Positions 7,471 through 20,941 of a stretch of DNA of 32,000 bases are shown here, one piece after another (the first letter of the stretch is position 1; the number at the start of each line of letters is the position of its first letter). Both the position numbers and the translations under genes were made by a program. The notes under the pieces are model-generated. The model was not told where the DNA came from. It was given only the letters and a program-made list of their open reading frames with translations, and ran no database searches. The DNA comes from Caedibacter taeniospiralis (GTDB lineage Bacteria; Pseudomonadota; Gammaproteobacteria; Francisellales; Francisellaceae), in contig NZ_PGGB02000001.1 in assembly GCF_002803295.2 (NCBI RefSeq), forward strand, positions 74,290-106,289, read 5' to 3'.

Positions 7471-8586
7471 TTAGATCTCAAAACATTGTGTCATGACTTT
7501 TAACACTTCATCGCCTTCGTGTACGGTTGCCGATGAGGTGCGAGTCAATAATAAAGCTTCTTGTGCCAAGGTCAAAACTTGTGGTTCAGCTAAAGCTAAA
7601 ATACTGCTTTTATCATATACAGTCGCAAGTGGAGTATTGGGCTTTTGCAAGCCACCTAACAGGTGATCGGCATAAGCCACCATCCCTCCCATCGGCGCTC
7701 TAATACGAAAAAAGTCGCGCTCAAGGCAGGCATACTGCGGCATATGAGGTTTCGCTATGTCAGTATTTTTAATATAGGCGATGATGCCTTTAAGCAAGGT
7801 TTCAGCATTTCCTAAGTCAAAACTCTCTTTATTCCCCATCTCATAGGTGAACGCATGTTTTGGTGGTACTTTGTTTTCGCCTGTGAGATTATTCCAACAC
7901 TCGGTCAGCTGCCACCAGGGATAAAAAATAGCCTGGTTAAAACAGCCACTTGGCTCATTGGGGGTCAAAATAAACGCATTGCTGTTAAAATGTCTTAAGC
8001 GTTCATCTTGCAAATAGTTAGGGGCATAGATATATGGCACTGAAATGGAATCACAGTGCAAATCAAAGCTAAAATCAGCATTTAGCGCCAGATGGTGCAG
8101 GATATTGGCAAGCTTCTCATACGGTGCATTATCGTGCTGAAAGCAGGTGTTCAAACGCTCTCTTAACAAAGCTAAAAACCGCTCACACAGCACCACAAAC
8201 CCCTGTTTTTGATGCGCTTTAACAAAGGCATCTAAATCAATTGCAGGCAACTTGCCATAGGGCATCAGCAGATTTTTAAATCCGCGATTCCAATTCTCAC
8301 CCGTTTTGGCATCAAAGCGCCCATAGGTGTACTCACCAATTTTGATATCCATCGCAAACGGATTAGCAAACGGCACTAAGGTCACATTGTAGGGAAAATC
8401 ATGCGTCTCTAAATATTGCCGCAGTAGATAAATCAAGGCAATGCCATTGCTTTCAGCAGCATGCAATGCCGCTTGCATGTAAATATTCGCCTTGGCCTTA
8501 GGGTGTCTATATTCCATGACACTGAGGCTATGGGTTAATCCTGAAATAGTTGTTCTAAAAGGAATTTCTCTAATTTGTATCATCAT
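7471..8586 (-). CDS. Succinylglutamate desuccinylase/aspartoacylase (AstE/AspA, M14-like) family zinc deacylase
   Basis: 371 aa. Contains an HxxE-type motif (LHAAESNG) and a later DLHCD motif typical of the family. Its start overlaps the dapF stop (ATGA). Confidence 0.7.
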   Translation of the reverse strand: MMIQIREIPFRTTISGLTHSLSVMEYRHPKAKANIYMQAALHAAESNGIALIYLLRQYLETHDFPYNVTLVPFANPFAMDIKIGEYTYGRFDAKTGENWNRGFKNLLMPYGKLPAIDLDAFVKAHQKQGFVVLCERFLALLRERLNTCFQHDNAPYEKLANILHHLALNADFSFDLHCDSISVPYIYAPNYLQDERLRHFNSNAFILTPNEPSGCFNQAIFYPWWQLTECWNNLTGENKVPPKHAFTYEMGNKESFDLGNAETLLKGIIAYIKNTDIAKPHMPQYACLERDFFRIRAPMGGMVAYADHLLGGLQKPNTPLATVYDKSSILALAEPQVLTLAQEALLLTRTSSATVHEGDEVLKVMTQCFEI

Positions 8587-9365
8587 ATTTCCCCTATATT
8601 TCCACTAAAAATCGTTTTGATTGCACCGGTTAATAAAACCTCTTCTGCCATACACTCAACAATGAGCTGGCTAACTGCATTTTCCACCGTCACCTTGGGT
8701 TTTAATCGCCCAAGATAAACTCCTGAAAAAACACAGGCAATGCTGCCACTGCCACACGATGGCGTGATTCCCGTACCACGCTCCCAATGCTCAACATAGA
8801 TTCGATCGTATGCCAACTGTTTTACTGCATGAACATTTATACCACCTTGATATCTTTGCTGCAGCGACATCCCAAGTTCATCAAAGGAGCCTGCCTCATT
8901 AAGATTACGCCATAACACCAGATGGGGATTCCCCACATCCACTTCCACAGCGGCATCAAACTCCGAATCATCTGTGATGATATATTGCCCAGGCTTAATA
9001 CTGGGCAATGGAAAAGCGACCTGAATCCAATCATGTGCGATCATCTGGCAACGATGCACAAAGCCTCCTACTTCAATTTCAACATGCTGAGTGTTCTTTT
9101 CCGCCAATAGCAAACTTGCCACGGCGCGTAAACCATTGCCACATTGCTTTGCCTTAGAGCCATCTTGATTATAGATGTGCATGCTGGCATCCGCTTTGCC
9201 TGATTTTCTAATCAAAAGCAGCTGATCGGCGCCCACGCCAAAGCGCCGATCACAGATTTGTTTAACTTGCTGGGGCTGCCAATTGCGTGGACGCTCTCGT
9301 TCATCGATTACGACGAAGTCATTGCCCAGCGCGCACATCTTGGTAAATATAAGTGGCTTATTCAC
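8583..9365 (-). CDS. dapF: Diaminopimelate epimerase
   Basis: 260 aa. GNDFVVID motif, with catalytic cysteines in QCGNG and PSCGSGS. Confidence 0.92.
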   Translation of the reverse strand: MNKPLIFTKMCALGNDFVVIDERERPRNWQPQQVKQICDRRFGVGADQLLLIRKSGKADASMHIYNQDGSKAKQCGNGLRAVASLLLAEKNTQHVEIEVGGFVHRCQMIAHDWIQVAFPLPSIKPGQYIITDDSEFDAAVEVDVGNPHLVLWRNLNEAGSFDELGMSLQQRYQGGINVHAVKQLAYDRIYVEHWERGTGITPSCGSGSIACVFSGVYLGRLKPKVTVENAVSQLIVECMAEEVLLTGAIKTIFSGNIGEI

Positions 9366-10596
9366 TGAGGTAATCCTTAAAAATCAATGAGGTATTAATT
9401 CCGCCAAAGGCGAAATTATTGCTCATGACAATATTCGTTTTAATCGCTTGTGCGCTACCCATAATATAATTAAGTCCTGCACAGGCTGCATCGACTTCGA
9501 CAAGATTTGCCGTGGGCATAAACAAACCATCTTTCATCATCATGATGCTAAGCCAGGATTCCAGCGCACCACAAGCTCCCAGAGTATGACCGAAATTGCC
9601 CTTCAATGAACTGATCGGAACCTGGTTACCAAAGATTGCAAAAGTTGCCTCACTTTCGGCAATATCCCCTCTATCAGTCGCGGTACCGTGCGCTGAAATA
9701 TAGCCGATATCTTGAGCCTCAAGCTTTGCATCACTTAAAGCAAGTTTTAATGCTTCAACCATTTTCTCGGCGGTGGGCTGGGTGATATGCCTTGCATCAC
9801 AATTGGTACCAAAACCCGCGACTTCGGCATAAATCTTAGCTCCTCGCGCCTTGGCATGCTCATATTCCTCCAGAATCAATGTACAAGCCCCTTCACCAAG
9901 CACGAGCCCATCTCTGTTTTTATCAAATGGTCTTGGCGTTAAGTGTGGGGAGTCGTTCTTTTGACTCGTTGCAAACAAAGTATCAAAAATCGTCACCTGG
10001 CTTGGACATAACTCTTCAGCACCTCCTGCTAACATGATCTTTTGATAGCCGTGCTTAATCGCTTCATACGCATAACCAATCGCCTGTGAGCTTGAGGTAC
10101 ATGCGCTGGATGTTGGAATTACGCGTCCTGTTAGACCAAAAATCAGTGCTATATTAACTGCACAGGTGTGACTCATTGATTTCAAATAAGTTGTTGCACT
10201 GACATTTTTCACCGTGCATTCTGTTCTTATTTTTATCAGATCACACAAGGCTTCAGTACTCCCAGAGCAAGAGCCATAGGCAATCCCAACCTGTCCACTT
10301 TCCAGTAACTCAAACTCTTCCAACAACCCTGCATCCATCAACGCATTTTCACTTGCTACGGTCGCAAGATGGGCTACACGCCCCATTGATCTTAGCTGCT
10401 TACGCGTATAGTGTTCAGGCATTTTAAAATCAAGAATTGGCGCGCCAAGATTGGTATGTAACCCTTGAATCTGTGACCACTTACTCATTCTTTTTATGGC
10501 TGTTTTACCACTAAGCAACGCCTCTTTAATAGTTTCCCAATCACTTCCTAGAGCGCTGACTCCAGCCATTCCTGTAATCACAACACGCTCTGTCAT
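9358..10596 (-). CDS. Beta-ketoacyl-ACP synthase (FabB/FabF type) with a complete Cys-His-His triad
   Basis: SACTSSSQAIG, HGTATDRGD, GHTLGACG and a C-terminal FAFGGINTSLIF. ATG 10596 overlaps the upstream stop (ATGA). The ORF track start 10656 is probably too far upstream. Confidence 0.88.
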   Translation of the reverse strand: MTERVVITGMAGVSALGSDWETIKEALLSGKTAIKRMSKWSQIQGLHTNLGAPILDFKMPEHYTRKQLRSMGRVAHLATVASENALMDAGLLEEFELLESGQVGIAYGSCSGSTEALCDLIKIRTECTVKNVSATTYLKSMSHTCAVNIALIFGLTGRVIPTSSACTSSSQAIGYAYEAIKHGYQKIMLAGGAEELCPSQVTIFDTLFATSQKNDSPHLTPRPFDKNRDGLVLGEGACTLILEEYEHAKARGAKIYAEVAGFGTNCDARHITQPTAEKMVEALKLALSDAKLEAQDIGYISAHGTATDRGDIAESEATFAIFGNQVPISSLKGNFGHTLGACGALESWLSIMMMKDGLFMPTANLVEVDAACAGLNYIMGSAQAIKTNIVMSNNFAFGGINTSLIFKDYLSE

Positions 10597-11321
10597 ATGA
10601 GTCCACCATTGACTGAAATCACTTGGCGCGTGATGTAACTTGCAGCATCTGAGCATAGAAAGTTAATGACAGCGGCGACCTCTTCCACTGTACCCGCGCG
10701 ACGCATGGGGATACGTTTTTCAATTTCGTTTTTGTACTCTAAATCCTTGGTCATATCAGTTTCTATCAAGCCAGGAGCAACGCAATTGACGGTAATTTTA
10801 CGTTTAGCAAGTTCCAATGCCAGGGCTTTAGTCGCACCAATAATGCCTGATTTTGCCGCACTATAATTGACCTGTCCTTTATTGCCAGCCATTCCTGAGA
10901 CTGATGCCAGCGTCACGATTCTGCCACCTGTACGCTGCTGAATCATCGGCATCACACAGGGCTTTAGCACATTGTAGAAGCCATCGAGGTTGGTATGAAT
11001 GACACGATCCGACATATCTTCTTCCATTGCAGGAAACGGCACATCCAGACAAATGCCCGCATTATTAACAACCGCATAAAATGCGCCATTTTGCGCAATT
11101 TCTGCCATCAGCCTCTCTTTACAGGCTGCTCTATCTTGTATATCAAACTGGATTAAACAAGCCTTTCTGCCATTTTCCTCAATGAGGCGAGCGGTTTCTT
11201 TTGCCCCCTTATCATCACGATGGTAATGCACGACCACTTCAAACCCTGATTGTGCGAGCATAATCGCCACACTTTGACCAATGCCTTTACTGGCCCCCGT
11301 TACTAACGCTCTTCTAGTCAA
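10593..11321 (-). CDS. 3-oxoacyl-ACP reductase (SDR, FabG-like)
   Basis: 242 aa. Contains TGASKGIG, NNAG and YSAAKSG (YxxxK). Confidence 0.9.
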   Translation of the reverse strand: MTRRALVTGASKGIGQSVAIMLAQSGFEVVVHYHRDDKGAKETARLIEENGRKACLIQFDIQDRAACKERLMAEIAQNGAFYAVVNNAGICLDVPFPAMEEDMSDRVIHTNLDGFYNVLKPCVMPMIQQRTGGRIVTLASVSGMAGNKGQVNYSAAKSGIIGATKALALELAKRKITVNCVAPGLIETDMTKDLEYKNEIEKRIPMRRAGTVEEVAAVINFLCSDAASYITRQVISVNGGLI

Positions 11322-11775
11322 AATTTTTCCCTTGAATAATTTGTTTAAACTCTATCTCACTAGGCTGATACGCACTAAATTTAGCCGATGCCACACATTT
11401 TCCCTCCTGGTGAATTTCACATAAAAAAACTCCCAAAGGATCGCTAATCATCTCTTTTTTGGCAATGACGGTCAAAGTATCCCCTTCATTAAAGCTCACT
11501 TGCTCTGTTTTAAAATTTCTCACACTAATCATAAACCCACGCCTTGGAGCATGTTGCTCTTTATCACCCTGAAAATAGGCAAGGGCAGCGGATGCCTGCG
11601 CCATCATCTCAATGCCAACCCAAGCATAAACCCCCTTGATTTCTTTGTCATAGAAAATATGCTCTGGGGTAATTTTAACCCCGCAAACAGCCTGATCTTC
11701 ATTAACCTGCTCGAAGGTGTCAATCAACCGCATCGGCGGTGATTGTGGGATTATTTCACTTAAATCATACTGCAT
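11314..11775 (-). CDS. Hotdog-fold 3-hydroxyacyl-ACP dehydratase (FabA/FabZ-like)
   Basis: N-terminus IIPQSPPMRLID and a histidine in ITPEHIFY, with a hotdog-like pattern. ATG 11775 is preferred. The ORF track uses TTG 11811, which has no SD. Confidence 0.72.
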   Translation of the reverse strand: MQYDLSEIIPQSPPMRLIDTFEQVNEDQAVCGVKITPEHIFYDKEIKGVYAWVGIEMMAQASAALAYFQGDKEQHAPRRGFMISVRNFKTEQVSFNEGDTLTVIAKKEMISDPLGVFLCEIHQEGKCVASAKFSAYQPSEIEFKQIIQGKNFD

Positions 11776-11814
11776 ACTCAGTCCATCACATAAAACAATG
11801 ACTATTGCCAATAA

Positions 11815-12975
11815 TTAAACTGACGTTATTACCACCGAAATACTCATAAAGCAGGGCTTTTCCCAAACGCTTTTATCATTCGTTAATTGGATTGCCGATA
11901 ATTTTGGGTCAAAATGATCATTGTTTACTTGTGCAGGTAACTTTCTCTCAGGGTTATATGCTTTCAAGAGTAAAAGCGCACATAATGCCATCTCCGTCGC
12001 ACTTGCAGCACCCAAAGTGTGACCTGTTAGAGGCTTAGTTGAGCTGCAGCATACGCGATCCGCAAAGACTTCATAAATTGCGCAACTTTCCATCGCATCA
12101 TTTTTGGGCGTTGCCGTCCCATGCGTGTTGATATAGGCAATATCCATGGGCTTAATATTGGCGTCCATGAGTGCATTAAGCATCGCTTGTTTTGCCCCTT
12201 TGCCTTCTGGGTCTGGGGAGGTGATATGATAGGCATCAGAAGTCTCACCGCCGCCTAATAACTCAAGTTCGCTTGAATGCTTACTTAAAATAAATAATGC
12301 CACACCTTCTCCAATATTAATGCCATCCCGATTTTGCTGAAACGGCTGGCAAATACCACTTGAGATAGAATCTAGCGCATCAAAGCCATTTAGTGGCAAT
12401 TGCGATAAGCTATCGGCTCCACCAACAATACACAAATCACACAGTCCTGCCTTGATTAGGTGTTTTGCGGACATAAATGCTTTGCCACTGGAAGAACAGG
12501 CAGTTGAGATCACATAGGCAGGACCTCGGGCAGCTGCAAGTTTTGCAACAAACTCCGCCATTGTGCCAAATTCCTGCTGATGATAATGAAAACTCCTTGG
12601 CATTTGCCCTGTCCTGGCATAATGCTGATAAGCCATCTCTCCTTCTAAAATGCCTGAGGTACTTGTGCCTAAGATCACGCCTATTCTTTCTGGATTCATC
12701 TTGTGTGATAAATCTTCATAGGCGGACTTTATTTCCTGAAATGCTTTAAATAGCAATCGATTATTATGACAGTCAACCTGCTGATATTGCTCTGGCAAAC
12801 TCGTTAGCTGAGCTGTCACTTTTCCCACATAGGTTTTCCTGCCACTAAAGAGCGCATCATATGGAATCAGCACTGCGCGATTCGCCAGTAACGCCCTGGC
12901 AACTTCTTCTTTACCATCACCTAGCGCATTGATCACAGCAAAATCATTAATATAGACATTATTTTTCATATTCAA
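11815..12975 (-). CDS. Beta-ketoacyl-ACP synthase, second copy. The C-terminal ~10 codons appear frameshifted.
   Basis: ISTACSSSGKAF, HGTATPKND and TGHTLGAASA are present. The annotated frame ends MSISVVITSV, whereas the adjacent frame reads GGNNVSLIIG, the canonical KS C-terminus. Confidence 0.82.
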   Translation of the reverse strand: MNMKNNVYINDFAVINALGDGKEEVARALLANRAVLIPYDALFSGRKTYVGKVTAQLTSLPEQYQQVDCHNNRLLFKAFQEIKSAYEDLSHKMNPERIGVILGTSTSGILEGEMAYQHYARTGQMPRSFHYHQQEFGTMAEFVAKLAAARGPAYVISTACSSSGKAFMSAKHLIKAGLCDLCIVGGADSLSQLPLNGFDALDSISSGICQPFQQNRDGINIGEGVALFILSKHSSELELLGGGETSDAYHITSPDPEGKGAKQAMLNALMDANIKPMDIAYINTHGTATPKNDAMESCAIYEVFADRVCCSSTKPLTGHTLGAASATEMALCALLLLKAYNPERKLPAQVNNDHFDPKLSAIQLTNDKSVWEKPCFMSISVVITSV

Positions 12976-13556
12976 TAGTCATTTGTTTGCCCAAAGGAAG
13001 TCATGGACAAAAAGGTTGAAATTTGCCTAAAGCTCACCTCAATATCGCTATACGCGTGACCTTGCCCCGTCTTAATATCGATATTCGCACCTGCAAATAC
13101 CTGTTTAGCAAATTGTATGGGTGTTGTCATATCATCCTCCTGCAGCAATACCAGGTAATTTTTCAAATCTTTCAACGTTTTTGGCATTGCATTAACCAGC
13201 ATCATCGCCTCTTCATACACATGCTGATAGGCAGGAGTTTCCGCGATCAAATCAAGGCGTACGGCGGGATTAATTAAAACCACCTTATCAACATCATCAC
13301 GAAGCTGCTTTTGCAAATGCGCCATATAGCCGCCCAGGGAGCTGCCGATAATTACTTTGTGCCTGGCGTTCGTTCTTGTCAGCAAGCGATCAATTAAGTC
13401 GAATGCTTCTTTGGTCGTCGCTGGCAATTGTGGTGCTTCTATGATCGCGTGAGGATACTGTTGCTTTAACCATACTTTAAGTTTTTGCGCTTTTGGGGAA
13501 TCAGGGGAGCCCTGAAATCCATGTAAATATAAAAAATAAAGGCTGCTATTATCCAT
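12972..13556 (-). CDS. YqiA-like alpha/beta-hydrolase esterase (UPF0227 family)
   Basis: 194 aa. LYLHGFQGSP and the nucleophile elbow GSSLGG. Its stop overlaps the downstream KS start (ATGA). Confidence 0.75.
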   Translation of the reverse strand: MDNSSLYFLYLHGFQGSPDSPKAQKLKVWLKQQYPHAIIEAPQLPATTKEAFDLIDRLLTRTNARHKVIIGSSLGGYMAHLQKQLRDDVDKVVLINPAVRLDLIAETPAYQHVYEEAMMLVNAMPKTLKDLKNYLVLLQEDDMTTPIQFAKQVFAGANIDIKTGQGHAYSDIEVSFRQISTFLSMTSFGQTNDY

Positions 13557-13562
13557 TTTTCC

Positions 13563-15257
13563 TCACAACATGTACTGCCAACAATTAATCAAATGATAGC
13601 CCGTGGTCGATTTTATCAAGTTAAAACCAGGATTACCTGAATAATCGACGTACTCAACAGGTAAATCATGATCGATAAAGGTCGCACTGAATGTATCAAA
13701 CACTGAGGCTAAAGACGCAGATTGTCCGCTCATTGCCAAGTAACGCATATACTCCAGCATCGGCCAAATGCGATATGGCGAGGTTTGTTCATTTTCATGC
13801 AGATTGGGTCTCACGTATCCCTTCGCACTCAAGCCTTGCTTTAAAGTCTGCTCAAAGAGGGTTTTATCATCATCCATCACACTGATATCAACACCTAAAC
13901 TCTTCGCTTCGGTCATTAAAGAGCACCACTCAAAGCTGTGTCCTGGCTCAAATATTTCAGGTTGCTCTTCAATAGAGTACTCACGTATCAGTTTTTTTTG
14001 TGGATCAAAAAACAATACCATGATCTTGCGATACAAGTCTTCGGCTTGCGCTTTAAATAAAGTTTCACGGGTATGCCGAAAAGCCATCAAATAGCCTTCA
14101 AACAAGTGCATCAGTGCATTTTGACCAATCACCCCTGTTTCACTTCTTAAGCGACTAAATTCGTTTTCGATAAATTTTTGGTGAATGCGTGTGTGAACAT
14201 TTAAAATGTCCTCCAACAACGCTTCCTCCTTAAAATTGCCATACAGCTCACTTAGCGAAAACAACAAAAAGGCGTATTCATACGGATCGTTGTCATTTTT
14301 GCAGAGCTTGTCTTTGTACCAACCCTGGCTAACTGAATCAAAATATTCATTTTTGATCATCTGATATAGCTGATAGGCTTTATTAAGTCCCTCTGTTGTA
14401 TTGGTTAAGCGTGCATATGTTAGTAAATAAAACATGCCGCGCGTTTGGCACAATAGTCTCGTGCAATCTGCGTCAATTTCATGGGGTTTATCCAAAAACT
14501 CTGGCACATAACCCAAGTGCTCAATATTTTTAATAAGAAGCTGGTAATAACACTCCATCCAGAGCTGAATTGCCTTTTGCCTGTTTTTCAATTCAATTGC
14601 CGATAAGATTTTATCGAATACCTCTCTGATGCCCAAGTGACCTGTATCGATAATCCACGCATCTTCTGCAGGTCTTAATGGTGCCACGACCCTATTTCTA
14701 TCTTGCCTGTCCCGCGCCTCTAACTGCGCCAAAATCTCGTCATAGTCTGCCTTTTCACCTTTTACTGCAAGCTCGTCAAAACGTCTCTTTGCACGTATTC
14801 TGCTATTTGCTTCAAGAAAAAATTTATGCTTGGCATGAGGAAATACTACCGTTCCCATATCTCTGCCATCTGCCACAAGTCCATTCACACCTTCTGCAAA
14901 GTCCTTTTGACACTGCATTAGCGCATCTCTTACCACAGATATTTTTGCAATCTTAGAAGCCATCATTCCTGTTTGCTCTTCGCGAATGCGGCTACTAACA
15001 TCAACTTCATCCAAATAGGCTTTTGTCTTATCTGCCTCAACCGAGAAACGAATATTCAGCTGCGCTAGCTTTTTTGCCAACATACGCTCATCATCCAATG
15101 GCAACTGGTGATCTAACACATAAAGTGCCGCCAGTCGATAAATTGCACCACTGTCTAGCAGGGCATAATTGAACTTTTGTGCCAATAATCGTGACAATGT
15201 GCCCTTACCCACACCACTGGGTCCATCAATCGTAATAATTTCTACTTTATTTGGCAT
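13563..15257 (-). CDS. cmk: Fusion protein: N-terminal cytidylate kinase plus a C-terminal N-acylglucosamine 2-epimerase (AGE) superfamily (alpha/alpha)6-barrel domain
   Basis: The Cmk part has IITIDGPSGVGKGT, LDSGAIYR and a DGRDMGTVVFP-like motif. The C-terminal ~340 aa has QTRGMFYLLTYA, YEYAFLLFSL, NALMHLFEGY, EPGHSFEW and TTGYH. One uninterrupted ORF. ATG 15257 has an aagg SD. The ORF track start is 15290. Confidence 0.82.
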   Translation of the reverse strand: MPNKVEIITIDGPSGVGKGTLSRLLAQKFNYALLDSGAIYRLAALYVLDHQLPLDDERMLAKKLAQLNIRFSVEADKTKAYLDEVDVSSRIREEQTGMMASKIAKISVVRDALMQCQKDFAEGVNGLVADGRDMGTVVFPHAKHKFFLEANSRIRAKRRFDELAVKGEKADYDEILAQLEARDRQDRNRVVAPLRPAEDAWIIDTGHLGIREVFDKILSAIELKNRQKAIQLWMECYYQLLIKNIEHLGYVPEFLDKPHEIDADCTRLLCQTRGMFYLLTYARLTNTTEGLNKAYQLYQMIKNEYFDSVSQGWYKDKLCKNDNDPYEYAFLLFSLSELYGNFKEEALLEDILNVHTRIHQKFIENEFSRLRSETGVIGQNALMHLFEGYLMAFRHTRETLFKAQAEDLYRKIMVLFFDPQKKLIREYSIEEQPEIFEPGHSFEWCSLMTEAKSLGVDISVMDDDKTLFEQTLKQGLSAKGYVRPNLHENEQTSPYRIWPMLEYMRYLAMSGQSASLASVFDTFSATFIDHDLPVEYVDYSGNPGFNLIKSTTGYHLINCWQYML

Positions 15258-15441
15258 ATTTCTAACCTTAAACTCAAATGCCAAGGGCATTCAACAATAT
15301 ATCTATGAAGAATTTTGCGCCCAATTCTACTATCTATTGTTGAAGAAACCAAACTATACCCATCGCAAATCATGGTCGCCTCATTAAAATTTTGCCCATG
15401 GCACTACCTTGTAGAATCTCGTCAACTATACTTTTTGACAT

Positions 15442-17652
15442 ATGGATTATCAGGATCTGCTGAACATGAATAAAACGGGACATCGTGAACAAGGCAGTGT
15501 ACTACTGATAGCACTCATCATTGTTGCTGTAGTATCAATATTATCAGGTGTTATTTTGTATATGCTGAAAGTCAGTATGGTGCAAAATCAGGCGATTGAA
15601 AACTACAATAATGCGCGCAATGCTGCGTTTTTATCTTTAAAAAATACGATGGAAACAAATGATTACCCCTACACCAATACACCTTTAAGTCCTGTTGTAA
15701 AAAATTATACTTCAAACGCTGAAAACATTACCGTGACTAGTACGGTACCTGTGGATTTAAATGATGCTATCTTTCCCGATCATGCGGCGCTTAATAACGC
15801 CTCCGCCGTGTTGCAATATGGTGTAAATATACGGGTTACTGCACAGGCACAACACCAGATCGAATACGTAGCTATTGTCAATGCGCCCAGCCAATACAGG
15901 CAATTAAATGATTTAACATCGCAAGCAATACAAAATGTGAATATCCCTGCAGTAATTTTGACTAACTTGAATGCTTTACAAAAAAACGCTAACAATACGA
16001 TAGATGACGGGCAGGCAGGATTTCTAGGGACTATCAGTGTGGATAACACAGGAACCGTTGGGGCAGCTGGTTCTGGTAAACAGCTGAACTATAGTCCAAC
16101 CACGGGAGGGAGCCATAGTTTAGAATTTGCAGATAATGGGAATTACAAGCTCGAACAAGGCTGGTATTTAAATGCTGGAGCTTGGCATTGGCGTTTGATC
16201 ATCTATGAGGGGGCGTATGCTTACTATACGGAGATAGCTTTATCTACACTGAAAGCTCAGTCAGGGAGTTTTGCTAATTTAGCCTGGACGCGCCTTCTTG
16301 TGCAAGACATGCTAAGCTCCCCCAATCAATATGACTCAAGTAAAGAATATCCAGCAGGCAGTTATGTGAACTATGCTGGGCAGATTTTTGTGGCGTTAAG
16401 TGAGGTCAACACAGGTCAGAATAAAGACCCTTACAGTAATTGGAGCCAATGGCGATTAATCATCCCATTTGGTACCTATCCAGCATGGAATGCGGATGTC
16501 CAATACTACAAAGGTGATATTATTACGTACAATGGTGTCAAATATGTTGGTACCATGAACAATGGGGTCGGGAAGGGGGATCCTCCCAGTAATGGCTGGG
16601 CAGTGGCGCAGTTTAATCCTGCGCCTTGGCAGAATCAAGTTTATGATCCTGGTGAGTTCGTAACTTATGAGGGCTATACTTTTGTCAACGTCCATAAAAG
16701 TGTCGCGAGCAAAACACCATTTGAAGAGAGTGACCGCTGGAGGGTTGTTTTACCAGAGAATAGTCAGCCACTGGCTTATGATCCCCATATTTATTACACA
16801 GAAGGTTTTAAAATCAGCTATAAGAATAATATTTTTGTAAACACCCAAGGGACAATGGAAAGCCCTGATTCCTCTCAGGCTAATCGGTGGCTTAAGATTA
16901 CGACACCGATATATACAATAAAATGGATCAATATCTTTAATCTCATTTATGGTTTTACCCTCATTCAAACTACCGATGGTACTATTAAAGGGTTCATTTT
17001 TGATAATGTGGGGAATCAGGCGAGTGCGGCAGTGGAGTTAGTGACACTCTCAGATGTGACTCATGCCTATATTTTACCTATAGATATCAGAGCGAATCAG
17101 AATGTAACCAGGTTACTGTTGTTTCTATCCGTGGCTTCGGGACTTAAGCATATTGTTGACATCACGTTAAATTCACAAGCTCAGATCACAGCAAGCACGA
17201 TTATTTACACAAAAGATGATCCAGAGGAACAACTTAGCTATGTTCCACAGGTTTTGTTTAGAGATGAAAGTAGCCATTTTTTGGTCGTGCCATACCAAAG
17301 CTACATCGAGATTTATGTCTATCCCTCTTCATCAACTACACCTTCGGCTGTTTTAAATCGATCAGTTAGTTTTCCAGGGGAAACGCTGAAACAAGTCATT
17401 CCTTTTCAGGGTTTTGTAATGGTGATTACCGAGAGTAATAGCAATCCTCCTAATGGTTTTGCCCATTTTATTGCCTTGAGAGTTAATAAGGAATTTGCCA
17501 CTGTCAATCTAAGCTCAACGACTGGCGTTTATATAACTTACAATCCAGTAACGCAACAAACGCGACTTAACACTTCAACAGACTCAATCGGGATCGAAAT
17601 TCAAGATGCGCCTATGCCTTATGGCGTGATTGGAGTGCGGGCATTGCAATAA
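15442..17652 (+). CDS. PilX-N-like membrane-anchored protein with four CBM5/12-like repeats and a beta-rich C-terminal domain
   Basis: The N-terminus REQGSVLLIALIIVAVVSILSGVILYML...NARNAAF resembles the PilX N-terminal domain of minor pilins. There is no canonical G/FTLxE prepilin cleavage motif. An alternative start is ATG 15466. Confidence 0.68.
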   Translation: MDYQDLLNMNKTGHREQGSVLLIALIIVAVVSILSGVILYMLKVSMVQNQAIENYNNARNAAFLSLKNTMETNDYPYTNTPLSPVVKNYTSNAENITVTSTVPVDLNDAIFPDHAALNNASAVLQYGVNIRVTAQAQHQIEYVAIVNAPSQYRQLNDLTSQAIQNVNIPAVILTNLNALQKNANNTIDDGQAGFLGTISVDNTGTVGAAGSGKQLNYSPTTGGSHSLEFADNGNYKLEQGWYLNAGAWHWRLIIYEGAYAYYTEIALSTLKAQSGSFANLAWTRLLVQDMLSSPNQYDSSKEYPAGSYVNYAGQIFVALSEVNTGQNKDPYSNWSQWRLIIPFGTYPAWNADVQYYKGDIITYNGVKYVGTMNNGVGKGDPPSNGWAVAQFNPAPWQNQVYDPGEFVTYEGYTFVNVHKSVASKTPFEESDRWRVVLPENSQPLAYDPHIYYTEGFKISYKNNIFVNTQGTMESPDSSQANRWLKITTPIYTIKWINIFNLIYGFTLIQTTDGTIKGFIFDNVGNQASAAVELVTLSDVTHAYILPIDIRANQNVTRLLLFLSVASGLKHIVDITLNSQAQITASTIIYTKDDPEEQLSYVPQVLFRDESSHFLVVPYQSYIEIYVYPSSSTTPSAVLNRSVSFPGETLKQVIPFQGFVMVITESNSNPPNGFAHFIALRVNKEFATVNLSSTTGVYITYNPVTQQTRLNTSTDSIGIEIQDAPMPYGVIGVRALQ
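16324..16899 (+). repeat. Protein-level tandem repeat: four ~45-aa CBM5/12-like (chitin-binding type) modules inside the PilX-like CDS
   Basis: The modules are YPAGSYVNYAGQIFVAL...WSQWRLI, YPAWNADVQYYKGDIITYNGVKYVG...NGWAVA, APWQNQVYDPGEFVTYEGYTFVN...DRWRVV and YDPHIYYTEGFKISYKNNIFVN...NRWLKI. All fit the pattern W/Y..Y..G..V.Y.G..Y......P....W. Confidence 0.6.
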
Positions 17653-17772: not shown

Positions 17773-18990
17773 ATGAAAAAAATCCTCTTGTGCGTTACTG
17801 GCAGTGTGGCAGCCTACAAGGCTCTGGAATTGACCAGGCTTTTAACCAAGGAAAATTATGAGGTGAAAGTCATATTAACCAAGGCAGCCCAAGAATTTGT
17901 GACGCGTTTAAGTTTTGAAGCGCTTTGTCAGCACAGAGTTTATGATGATTTATTCCGCTATACCGACAACCCGATTGAGCATATTGAACTCGCTCGCTGG
18001 GCGGATCAGATTGTGATAGCACCAGCTTCGGCAAACACCATTGGCAAACTTGCAGCTGGACTTGCAGGTGATTTACTCGGGAATGTCGTATTGGCAACCG
18101 ATAAACCTGTTTATATTGCGCCAGCCATGAATAAACTGATGTGGCAAAATAGCATTGTGCGGGAAAATTTAGCCAAACTTAAAGATAGAGGATGTGTGGT
18201 GCTTCCCCCAGACTCAGGCGAGCAAGCCTGTGGCGATGTTGGCGAAGGTCGCTTAATGGAGCCCGAAGCAATTGTAAAAAATATTTTCCATGCAATAGCA
18301 GAAATTGATAAAACAGTGCTTATAACTGCAGGACCAACGGTCGAGCGACTCGATCCTGTGCGCTATATTTCCAATCACAGCTCAGGGAAAATGGGTTATG
18401 CTTTAGCACAAAGTTTTGTACATTTGGGCTGGAGAGTGATCTTGATTTCTGGACCAACTCAGCTTCAGGCTCCCAAAGGAATAACCTTGATCAGGGTGAA
18501 AAGTGCCGATGATATGTATAAAGCGGTGCACCAATATATTGTGGATGCCGATATATTTATTGCCGCAGCGGCGGTGGCTGATTATCGCCCTGAAACTTAT
18601 GTTGAGAAGAAGATTAAGAAAAAAGAGGGCGAGGAGCTTCTATCGATCAAGCTTGTCAGGAATGAAGATATTTTAAAGAGCGTATCATCGTTAACGCATC
18701 ATCGTCCGTTGTGTGTTGGATTTGCCGCTGAAACCCACAATGCCAAGGAGAATGCGCTGAGTAAAATCAGTAGTAAAGCCCTTGACTTTTTGGTGCTCAA
18801 TCAAATCGATAATGAAACTGGTTTTCCCTTTTATAGTGAGCAAAATCAGGTACAGGTCTATGATCACCTGCATCAGCTTGTATTGGATTTGGCGCGGATG
18901 TCAAAAAAAGAAATCGCTCAAGAGATTGCAAAACTATTGAATAGGCAAATACTGAAAAAAGAAATTCAGACGGAATTAAGCTATGAATAG
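17773..18990 (+). CDS. coaBC: Bifunctional phosphopantothenoylcysteine decarboxylase / phosphopantothenate-cysteine ligase
   Basis: 405 aa. The flavoprotein N-terminus is MKKILLCVTGSVAAYKALEL, followed by a CoaB domain (ITAGPT...ISNHSSGKMG). Confidence 0.93.
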   Translation: MKKILLCVTGSVAAYKALELTRLLTKENYEVKVILTKAAQEFVTRLSFEALCQHRVYDDLFRYTDNPIEHIELARWADQIVIAPASANTIGKLAAGLAGDLLGNVVLATDKPVYIAPAMNKLMWQNSIVRENLAKLKDRGCVVLPPDSGEQACGDVGEGRLMEPEAIVKNIFHAIAEIDKTVLITAGPTVERLDPVRYISNHSSGKMGYALAQSFVHLGWRVILISGPTQLQAPKGITLIRVKSADDMYKAVHQYIVDADIFIAAAAVADYRPETYVEKKIKKKEGEELLSIKLVRNEDILKSVSSLTHHRPLCVGFAAETHNAKENALSKISSKALDFLVLNQIDNETGFPFYSEQNQVQVYDHLHQLVLDLARMSKKEIAQEIAKLLNRQILKKEIQTELSYE

Positions 18991-20941
18991 ACGGATAAAA
19001 ATATTACCGACAGAGCTCGCCAATCAAATCGCTGCAGGTGAGGTGGTGGAGCGACCGTCGTCAATTGTCAAAGAGTTATTTGAAAATGCGCTTGATGCAG
19101 GAGCCACTGAAATCACTCTTGAACTTGAGCATGGAGGCAAAGAAAAGATTTTAATTCGCGACAATGGGATGGGCATAGCCAAAGAGGATCTGCCATTAAC
19201 CCTTATGCCACATGCAACAAGTAAAATTTATTGCCTGGATGAATTAGAAGCGATTGCAAGTATGGGCTTTAGGGGAGAGGCGCTTGCCAGTATTGGCTCA
19301 ATTGCTAAAGTAAAAATTACCTCAAAAACGCAAAGCGACTCGCATGCCTGGTGCTTGGACAACCAATTGGGCGATGATTTAATTCCTGCCTCTCATCCTG
19401 TTGGCACCACGATTGAAGTGTCAGAGGTTTTTTATAATACGCCAGCACGGCGTAAATTTTTAAAAGCTGAGCGCACCGAGTATGTGCACATTGATGAGTT
19501 ACTGAAGAAATTCATGCTGTGTCATTTTCATATGGCTCTCACCATTTTGCATAATGGCAAAGAGGTGAAGTCCTATCCAATTGCGGATACGCCGCAAAAG
19601 CAGCAGCAACGGATTGCCGAGATTTGTGGCGAGGAGTTTATTGAAAATGCGCTGATGATCCAAGAAGAGTCTATGGGTCTACAATTGCATGGTTGGGTGG
19701 CGAAACCACAGTTTTCAAAGTCGCGTGCGGAGTTGCAGTATTTCTATGTCAATGGTCGGATCATCAAAGATAAACTCGTTGCGCACGCAATAAAGCAGGC
19801 CTATAAAGATGTACTACATCACCAGCTTTATCCAGCGTTTATTTTGTTTTTTAGTATAGAGCCCTCGGCTGTGGATGTGAATGTTCATCCAACAAAGCAT
19901 GAAGTACGTTTTCGCGAGTCGCGTTTGGTACACGATTTTTTATTTGCCAAAATTCATCACGCATTGGCGCAAACTACGCCGAAAAATGTTGAAGAAAGCG
20001 GATTGGCAGATGACTCCAAGGACGTTTCAACACTTTATGAGCAAGCTTCTAAGGAGAAAAAGGAATTGACACCAGCTTTTCAAACAGCTGGTTTTACGAT
20101 AAAACCGCAGCAAAATCATACAAAGAGCATGTCGTTGTATGAGCAGCTTATCGCTAAATCCAATGGCGATACAGGGAAAAACCAGGTCTTTACAGCCACC
20201 ACAGGCTTATCAGGTGCTTTAAAAGAGGTAGATCAATGGCAAACGGCGACTCAGCTGGCTATGCCATTAGAAATTGACCCAGCAGATCAGCTGACTAGAG
20301 ATGGCGAAAGTGCGGCTAAAGTACTTAATGAAGCACAACCCGTGACAGAGGTAAAAACTTACCCTTTAGGCTTCGCCATTGCACAGGTTCATGGAATTTT
20401 TATTCTCGCACAAACCGAAGATGGGTTGATTGTGGTTGACATGCACGCCGCTCATGAGCGCGTGTTGTATGAGAAAGTTAAACGGTTGTGGGCAAACAAA
20501 ACCCCTTTCTCGCAAACGCTATTGTTGCCATTGACATTTGAATTAAGCCCACTGCTATTGGATGTGTTACTAGAGCATGAAGTGCTGTTGAATCAATTAG
20601 GGTTTGATTATTCAGCCTTGGGGGAAAAGACCTTGGTTGTGCGTGAAATCCCAGTGTATTTGAAGAATAATGATATTCAGACCCTGCTTTTAGACATTGC
20701 AAAAAGCCTTGAGCTAGGCGGCAAAACCAAACCGATGGAAGATTACTTGCATCAAATCCTTGCGACGATGTCTTGTCATAAAGCAGTGCGCGCCCATGAT
20801 CAAATCACGCTTCAAGAGATGAATCAGCTATTGCGTGACATGGAAGGGACGGAACGCGCAGACCAATGTAACCATGGCAGACCCACATGGGTCAAGCTGA
20901 CGATAGTGGACTTGGATAAGCTCTTTATGCGTGGAAAGTAG
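18983..20941 (+). CDS. mutL: DNA mismatch repair protein MutL
   Basis: 652 aa. IAAGEVVERPSSIVKELFENALDAGA and a C-terminal dimerisation domain. Overlaps the coaBC stop by 8 nt. Confidence 0.95.
   Translation: MNRRIKILPTELANQIAAGEVVERPSSIVKELFENALDAGATEITLELEHGGKEKILIRDNGMGIAKEDLPLTLMPHATSKIYCLDELEAIASMGFRGEALASIGSIAKVKITSKTQSDSHAWCLDNQLGDDLIPASHPVGTTIEVSEVFYNTPARRKFLKAERTEYVHIDELLKKFMLCHFHMALTILHNGKEVKSYPIADTPQKQQQRIAEICGEEFIENALMIQEESMGLQLHGWVAKPQFSKSRAELQYFYVNGRIIKDKLVAHAIKQAYKDVLHHQLYPAFILFFSIEPSAVDVNVHPTKHEVRFRESRLVHDFLFAKIHHALAQTTPKNVEESGLADDSKDVSTLYEQASKEKKELTPAFQTAGFTIKPQQNHTKSMSLYEQLIAKSNGDTGKNQVFTATTGLSGALKEVDQWQTATQLAMPLEIDPADQLTRDGESAAKVLNEAQPVTEVKTYPLGFAIAQVHGIFILAQTEDGLIVVDMHAAHERVLYEKVKRLWANKTPFSQTLLLPLTFELSPLLLDVLLEHEVLLNQLGFDYSALGEKTLVVREIPVYLKNNDIQTLLLDIAKSLELGGKTKPMEDYLHQILATMSCHKAVRAHDQITLQEMNQLLRDMEGTERADQCNHGRPTWVKLTIVDLDKLFMRGK

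Follow-up and report, generated by a model that had tools for sequence, protein, structure and literature searches.

What would a bacterium do with a protein that begins like a minor pilin, continues as a string of chitin-binding-type repeats and ends in a β-rich domain, when its gene has no pilus operon around it? The question is raised by a gene at 15442–17652 (+) in a stretch of 32,000 nucleotides from Caedibacter taeniospiralis (contig NZ_PGGB02000001.1, positions 74,290–106,289), the whole of which is referred to here as the window. A preliminary description had proposed an orphan, PilX-like anchored protein carrying four repeats resembling carbohydrate-binding modules (CBMs) of family 5/12. 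The analysis presented here indicates that the product is probably a modular minor pilin of PilX/GspK type, that is, a cap subunit lacking Glu5 from a type IV pilus (T4P) or from a pseudopilus like that of the type II secretion system (T2SS). It is the minor pilins that determine the surfaces to which a type IV pilus adheres; in the Francisella lineage they have, to our knowledge, hardly been studied.

The reading frame is unbroken over 736 codons, as first described, and is not a chance open reading frame (ORF), since orthologues were found at 43–62% identity; near-identical (99%) copies of the protein are also present in several independent assemblies. A second in-frame ATG at 15466 (Met9) gives a 728-aa product with a ten-residue leader, MNKTGHREQG, which fits the leaders of homologues (for example MYKCKYNQHG), and the 99% identical C. 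taeniospiralis protein WP_395946209.1 was annotated by NCBI from the equivalent start (728 aa). On this comparison the true start is probably the ATG at 15466 rather than that at 15442, although residues are numbered here from the upstream ATG. The parts of the predicted protein are as follows.

15442..17652 (+): whole ORF, 736 aa counted from the upstream ATG; stop codon at 17650–17652
15466..15495 (+): leader MNKTGHREQG, Met9 to Gly18; proposed class III signal, putatively cleaved after Gly18
15496..15597 (+): hydrophobic α1-N-like helix, aa 19–52, SVLLIALIIVAVVSILSGVILYMLKVSMVQNQAI; no Glu at +5
15598..16317 (+): family-specific globular part of the N-terminal domain, aa 53–292; motifs NIPxV, GYIG and QGWxLxxGxW
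16318..16470 (+): CBM5/12-like repeat 1, aa 293–343; scored alone against Pfam, E 0.014, 15.8 bits; aligns to a Vibrio deacetylase CBM
16471..16620 (+): CBM5/12 repeat 2, aa 344–393; scored alone, E 3.5e-5, 24.2 bits, the best match of the four; predicted local distance difference test (pLDDT) 83–90
16621..16761 (+): CBM5/12 repeat 3, aa 394–440; scored alone, E 0.005, 17.3 bits
16762..16911 (+): CBM5/12-like repeat 4, aa 441–490; Y..Y..V..W..P pattern in common with repeats 1–3
16912..17649 (+): B domain, aa 491–736; predicted β-propeller of about five blades; C-terminal motif APMPYGVIG

N-domain relatives and their minor-pilin triads

A profile built from residues ~10–292 (the N-domain) recovered 27 proteins out of 1.84 billion in an exhaustive search of representatives, and every named match came from Francisella, Pseudofrancisella, Facilibium, Cysteiniphilum, Caedibacter or a metagenome-assembled genome of the Francisellaceae; Fastidiosibacter was added to the family by a genome scan. 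The three motifs listed above are common to the members, as is the invariant leader Gly, and CBM5/12 modules occur in several. The family is annotated ‘hypothetical protein’ nearly everywhere, some F. philomiragia members having been deposited as ‘putative pilus assembly protein’.

The more distant members (profile E 1.9e-24 to 6e-7) hold the third slot in PilV/GspI-like–PilW/GspJ-like–X triads at the four loci checked (L012; L013/L014; L015/L016; L019). On the metagenomic contig L012, P0018 (E 4.5e-20) and P0016 (E 1.9e-24) follow a 106-aa gene with the N-terminus TSG/FGLVEVIIG (slash, leader boundary; GspI E 6e-4) and then a 308-aa gene with weak matches to PilW (E 0.012) and T2SSJ (E 0.09). 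The Francisella salina member P0019 (CP002872; E 2.2e-12), itself bearing CBM5/12, is preceded by a GspH-like gene and by genes with the N-termini KG/LSFVELII and KG/ISLIEVLL. Two Pseudofrancisella aestuarii members, P0022 and P0025, are each preceded by PilV-like and PilW-like genes, one of the partners being called ‘PilW family protein’ by NCBI. Glu5 is found in the first two genes of every triad and is missing from the third, which matches the hallmark of the GspK/PilX cap subunit (the GspK-type subunit lacks Glu5; PMC8179133). Moreover, when the N-domain family was aligned with the neighbouring PilW-like prepilins (hhalign, E 4.9e-4), the match covered 67 columns and the Gly residues of the cleavage site coincided. 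The genomic context of homologues, which the preliminary description suggested examining for pilVWXY1-type clusters, did include PilV–PilW–X triads around distant relatives, and their presence speaks against reading the N-terminus as a plain signal anchor with no kinship to pilins.

The N-terminus itself is consistent with this placement. A short basic leader runs to Gly18 and is followed by a long uncharged hydrophobic stretch and then NARNAAF; the boundary MNKTGHREQG/SVLLIALIIVAVVSILSGVILYML fits the short hydrophilic leader and at least 20 hydrophobic residues of a class III signal. The leader Gly was invariant in 13 diverse family members, and aa 19–52 formed the best-conserved 34-residue window of the protein (mean pairwise identity 0.855, vs 0.53–0.60 elsewhere), a conservation that resembles pilin α1-N and is unlike that of generic membrane anchors, which are usually less conserved. 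AlphaFold2 (AF2) predicts a single helix over aa 15–72 (~58 residues), at low pLDDT. The N-domain therefore appears to be a diverged, lineage-specific minor pilin module of PilX/GspK type, an assignment made from homology and gene order rather than from a hidden Markov model (HMM) or a fold.

Some of these loci have features of their own. The P. aestuarii genome contains three PilV-like/PilW-like/Glu5-less triads (L013/L014, 4677–11860; L019, 8650–11737), two of them side by side and divergent, the second ending in a 552-aa Glu5-less gene; this gene was left out of the N-domain family count, so that two P. aestuarii triads are confirmed. One PilV-like protein there (401 aa) has PKD domains. 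The three triads point to several interchangeable sets of pilus tip proteins. At the F. salina locus (L015, 13395–15614) a gene for a KatG-type catalase-peroxidase lies ~1 kb downstream of the CBM-bearing gene in the PilX slot, which may be coincidence; in F. tularensis LVS, secretion of KatG has been reported to depend on T4P (bioRxiv 10.64898/2026.05.11.724269).

CBM5/12 repeats and the C-terminal propeller

The claim of four tandem chitin-binding-type modules held up well. Residues 293–490 comprise four divergent tandem repeats of ~47–51 aa each, and Pfam CBM_5_12 (PF02839) scored 28.2 bits on the full protein and 35.3 bits (E 1.2e-8) on the repeat region (aa 294–493); both are scores summed over the repeats, to be read against a whole-protein gathering cutoff of 26.2 bits. 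Run against PDB sequences, phmmer picked out Vibrio chitin oligosaccharide deacetylases, in their tandem CBMs (E 3e-4), as well as a CBM from a chitinase. The aromatic and glycine pattern (N-terminal W/Y, Y-x-x-G-[DE], Y/F-x-G, distal W) was present in 4/4 repeats, the distal Trp of each (W337, W386, W433 and W483) being invariant among orthologues, and the repeat region was the sole confidently folded part of the full-length AF2 model (pLDDT 70–90; nine-sequence alignment, mean pLDDT 53). Judged by these sequence matches, aa 293–490 belong to CBM5/12 at the whole-protein level, and the expected ligand of the array would be chitin or related glycans containing N-acetylglucosamine (GlcNAc).

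P0022, a PilX-slot protein of Pseudofrancisella, also shows a weak CBM5/12-like segment at residues ~300–360, which by itself gave Pfam E 0.009. As it was missed in the whole-protein Pfam scan, chitin-binding modules may be commoner in the N-domain family than Pfam annotation shows.

The remaining ~250 aa, noted earlier simply as β-rich, are indeed all-β in prediction, and both their identity as a β-propeller and their place in a gene fusion had been missed. Modelled alone (AF2, 13-sequence alignment), the B domain gave pLDDT 87.3 and a predicted template-modelling score (pTM) of 0.84, with 19 β-strands grouped 4+4+4+4+3. Every significant Foldseek match to this model was a β-propeller (prob 1.00, TMq ~0.5), the matched folds including Ski8, Vps11, Dos1, LGI1-EPTP, NHL and BamB. 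In sequence, B matched no Pfam family at E≤10 and nothing in the PDB. Low-TM propeller matches were also obtained with the full-length AF2 model and were discounted, the N-domain of that model being unusable.

Most close homologues (6/8) are only 524–538 aa long and end in a fifth CBM-like repeat, and at each of three short-form loci inspected the short form is followed within 10–20 bp by a gene of ~280 aa. Residues 494–733 of the window protein are 44% identical (E 4e-69) to a separate 278-aa Fastidiosibacter gene. Since B is a separate downstream gene in sister species, the window gene is read as a fusion in which A, the pilin module with its CBMs, is joined to B. The split arrangement, with B immediately downstream of A, is found in most Cysteiniphilum and in Fastidiosibacter; at four loci, by inspection, the separate B proteins start with a hydrophobic Sec-like signal, which the fused forms lack. 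Cysteiniphilum sp. 19S12-1/6C5 has a fused form as well, 49% identical to the window protein, so that a single genus has both fused proteins (731–741 aa; L001/L005) and split pairs (A ~530 aa and B ~280 aa; L003, L004, L006, L008, L009 and L011). The two forms may be related by fusion or by fission, the signal peptide of split B having been either gained or kept. The fifth CBM-like repeat of split A is missing from the fused forms, and CBMs are lacking altogether from P0011 of Facilibium subflavum and from a metagenomic protein, whose N-domains lead straight into B. An artefactual merger of two genes by sequencing error was rejected, as the fused form recurs in independent assemblies and in two lineages ~50% diverged. 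Propellers were also sought in the C-terminal parts of P0022 and P0030, where hhalign with the B profile was non-significant (E 0.39 and 0.054), and none is claimed for these proteins.

A candidate pilus tip subunit and its alternatives

Taken as a minor pilin of PilX/GspK type, the protein would work as follows. Prepilin peptidase would remove the leader MNKTGHREQG after Gly18, and the conserved α1 helix would seat the protein at the filament tip with PilV/GspI-like and PilW/GspJ-like partners encoded elsewhere, by analogy with its homologues. The ~270-aa family-specific domain would serve as the pilin module, as homology and synteny, rather than fold, suggest. Displayed beyond it, the four CBM5/12 modules, whose family is established, would bind chitin or GlcNAc-containing glycans, and the propeller of about five blades seen in the AF2 model may be a PilY1-like accessory module, adhesive or docking in role. 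In species with split genes the Sec-exported propeller would join the tip non-covalently; in Caedibacter and one Cysteiniphilum lineage the connection would be covalent. The Francisella T4P machinery also secretes chitinases and the chitin-binding protein CbpA (bioRxiv 10.64898/2026.05.11.724269), so that a tip subunit able to bind chitin would hold the cell or its filament on the substrate of those proteins.

A bolder version is offered only tentatively: the protein might be a natural single-chain pilus tip in which a PilX/GspK-type cap, a chitin-binding arm and a miniature propeller analogous to PilY1 are combined, the Francisellaceae-specific and HMM-invisible equivalent of a PilX/PilY1 pair. 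If so, the dual pilus and secretion machine of the Francisellaceae would be physically linked to chitin; in Caedibacter, a glycan of Paramecium might be bound instead.

A number of results weigh against the minor-pilin assignment or against parts of the scheme built on it. Pfam PilX_N (PF14341) gave no match at E≤10 to the whole protein or to its isolated N-terminus (and only E 0.33–0.37 in two distant family members); on this check the PilX likeness first proposed failed, and what stands of it stands on the homology and triad synteny of distant relatives. NCBIfam GspK (NF037980) reached only E 0.031 and 13.8 bits over the helix, against a cutoff of 130, and NCBIfam ComGG only E ~0.03 over the helix, far under its cutoff. 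There was no N_methyl match (PF07963/IPR012902) and there is no Glu at +5; absence of Glu5 being expected in GspK/PilX-type subunits, a canonical pilin is thereby ruled out, whereas a tip pseudopilin is not. The N-domain was modelled at pLDDT <50, leaving the pilin fold unsupported by the AF2 model, and its profile found nothing significant among PDB sequences: the top, non-significant matches were full-length pilins with the leader Gly in register, and a FliL membrane anchor scored level with them.

The surroundings of the gene itself also weigh against the assignment. As the preliminary description stated, no pilus or T2SS genes flank it; pilin and pilus-machinery genes are absent from the 32-kb window, a six-frame motif scan of the whole window found no other prepilin-like N-terminus, and the orthologues in Cysteiniphilum, Fastidiosibacter and Facilibium have no pilin or pilus genes nearby in the loci examined. 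All genes of the propeller-bearing clade at these loci are thus orphans, away from pilin operons. A PilW-like profile search returned no PilW from Caedibacter or Cysteiniphilum, the search being limited by shared words and returning only close relatives of its queries, and published genome descriptions of the two genera mention neither pili nor chitin. Among the modules, each single repeat scores under the Pfam CBM_5_12 cutoff, and repeat 4 alone has no Pfam match and is recognised only through its likeness to repeats 1–3. The B domain shows no sequence similarity to the PilY1/PilC propeller (IPR008707) in Pfam or the PDB, and PilY1 is not in its top 50 Foldseek matches.

Much of this would also be expected of a bitopic inner-membrane protein, in which a pilin-derived signal anchor stays uncleaved, the CBMs and propeller lie in the periplasm or envelope and no filament is assembled; such a protein might sense or hold GlcNAc oligomers or glycans derived from peptidoglycan. 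In its favour, all members of the propeller-bearing clade have the gene as an orphan, all pilin HMMs are non-significant, a FliL-type anchor equals pilins in N-domain profile score, and the organism is an endosymbiont of reduced genome that may lack a pilus machinery. It is nevertheless judged unlikely: the helix and leader Gly are conserved far above the rest of the protein, which is unusual for a plain anchor, homologues stand within PilV–PilW–X triads, and the separate B protein has its own export signal, implying a complex assembled beyond the membrane. CBM5/12 modules are, in addition, typical of extracellular proteins that bind insoluble chitin. The hydrophobic helix also drew sub-threshold Pfam and NCBIfam matches to FliL, ODV-E18 and DUF515, the last two being spurious, and a TadE/TadG-type pseudopilin was rejected, there being no TadE-like motif and only one stray match (E 0.11) in a distant member.

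Alternatively, the protein could be an adhesin that binds chitin and is secreted or released at the surface, its N-terminus being a cleavable Sec signal and its export proceeding by Sec and then, as a substrate, through a T4P/T2SS-like machine. The Sec-like signals on separate B proteins and the export of chitinases and CbpA by the Francisella T4P machinery would suit this; yet the hydrophobic stretch after Gly18 far exceeds a Sec h-region and continues into the predicted ~58-residue helix, the aa 19–52 segment is the best-conserved part of the protein, and the homologues are placed as minor pilins rather than as substrates, all of which makes a secreted adhesin highly improbable. A relic, with the ORF intact, its partners or ligand lost and the gene drifting towards loss, is also improbable. 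Chitin synthesis is not known in Paramecium, and shortened versions occur in some assemblies (P0014, P0043 and P0052), though these may be contig fragments. Caedibacter, moreover, lives obligately inside Paramecium as an endosymbiont, and its genome is reduced (PMC7297999). Against decay, the 736 codons are unbroken, the protein is 99% identical across several independent assemblies, and every family-invariant residue is kept, whether in the helix, in the N-domain motifs or at the aromatic positions of the CBMs.

How far the proposed minor pilin departs from known systems can be gauged from its nearest counterparts. With PilX of Pseudomonas aeruginosa-type T4aP and GspK of the T2SS it shares a short basic leader to Gly, a long Glu5-less helix, a size larger than that of other minor pilins and, in its homologues, third place after PilV/GspI-like and PilW/GspJ-like genes, with a GspH/FimU-like gene nearby in F. 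salina. It differs from them in having no significant PilX_N or NCBIfam GspK match, in a globular domain that belongs to a Francisellaceae-restricted family with its own motifs, in the orphan position of the window copy and in its CBM5/12 and β-propeller modules, which are absent from PilX and GspK.

The closest precedent is provided by the modular type IV pilins, exemplified by PilB (vWA module) and PilC (lectin module) of S. sanguinis (Raynaud et al. 2021, PMC8179133; PMC9934059), in which, as proposed here, a pilin module carries a grafted adhesive or glycan-binding module and presents it at the filament tip. A survey of such proteins lists a pilin with CBM5/12 (IPR012902–IPR003610) once (PMC8179133). 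Unlike the survey set, the window protein lacks the defining IPR012902/N_methyl signature, its carrier is of PilX/GspK type, its graft is a four-CBM5/12 array with a β-propeller, and all these features are predicted from sequence. The architecture was at first called unusual, which overstates the case: lectin-module pilins are established (PMC8179133), and CBM5/12-bearing family members sit in canonical Francisella minor-pilin operons.

The tip adhesin PilY1/PilC is not itself a pilin; it has a propeller at its C-terminus and docks on the cap formed by minor pilins (PMC8179133). The B module resembles it in being a β-propeller and, when separate, in lying directly downstream of a PilX-like gene and carrying a Sec-type signal, as in pilX–pilY1; however, B has ~250 aa and about five blades, as against ~500 aa and seven blades in PilY1, and in the window protein it is covalently joined to the pilin module. 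B may work like PilY1 while standing outside the PilY1 family, the resemblance being one of fold class and gene order. The repeats, for their part, share with the CBM5/12 modules of chitinases and of the Vibrio deacetylase (PDB 4NY2, 3WX7) the aromatic pattern, Y-x-x-G-D-x-V-x-Y-x-G, the distal W and the tandem arrangement, but they are borne by a pilin-like carrier rather than an enzyme, and are divergent enough to fall singly under the Pfam cutoff. The window gene is most likely an uncharacterised variant of the known modular-pilin adhesins and not a new kind of system; what distinguishes it is an HMM-undetected carrier family in the PilX/GspK slot, the four-module CBM5/12 array and a small propeller that may be split or fused.

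Cysteiniphilum is a marine emerging pathogen linked to shrimp-puncture wounds and coral disease, and this crustacean and coral association, with the T4P–chitin link in Francisella, forms a coherent context for a chitin-binding tip. Were the proposed role correct, these bacteria would have in such a subunit a concrete means of attaching to chitinous surfaces, the existence of both split and fused propellers would offer a natural handle on how a PilY1-like adhesin is coupled to a PilVWX-type cap, and a whole family of tip subunits would have escaped standard pilin HMMs.

Gene neighbourhood

The gene lies, as originally noted, divergently beside cmk and upstream of coaBC, which is followed by mutL; the genes around it have housekeeping functions, and the cmk gene proved to be a fusion.

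13563–15290 (−): cmk fusion ORF, 575 aa, divergent neighbour
17773–18990: coaBC, downstream of the 15442–17652 gene
18983–20941: mutL, downstream, after coaBC

In the 575-aa ORF, Pfam Cytidylate_kin matched aa 19–233 (E 4.5e-66) and GlcNAc_2-epim (N-acylglucosamine 2-epimerase-like) matched aa 260–526 (E 1.8e-21). Fusion of Cmk to a GlcNAc-2-epimerase-like domain is unusual, and this one adjoins a gene for a predicted GlcNAc-polymer-binding protein. Around the F. subflavum relative, P0011 lies ~4 kb from a block of the Dot/Icm-type type IVB secretion system (L017, 1–5800; DotD, IcmT, a T2SSE-family ATPase and a TraG/TrwB-like coupling protein), with housekeeping genes between, and this proximity is probably coincidental. 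Further upstream in the window, a UPF0227 esterase-like gene is found at 12972–13556, and 8583–12975 (−) holds a fatty-acid or aryl-polyene-type gene run of two ketoacyl synthases, an ApeP-like dehydratase, a short-chain reductase and a protein with the diaminopimelate (DAP)-epimerase fold.

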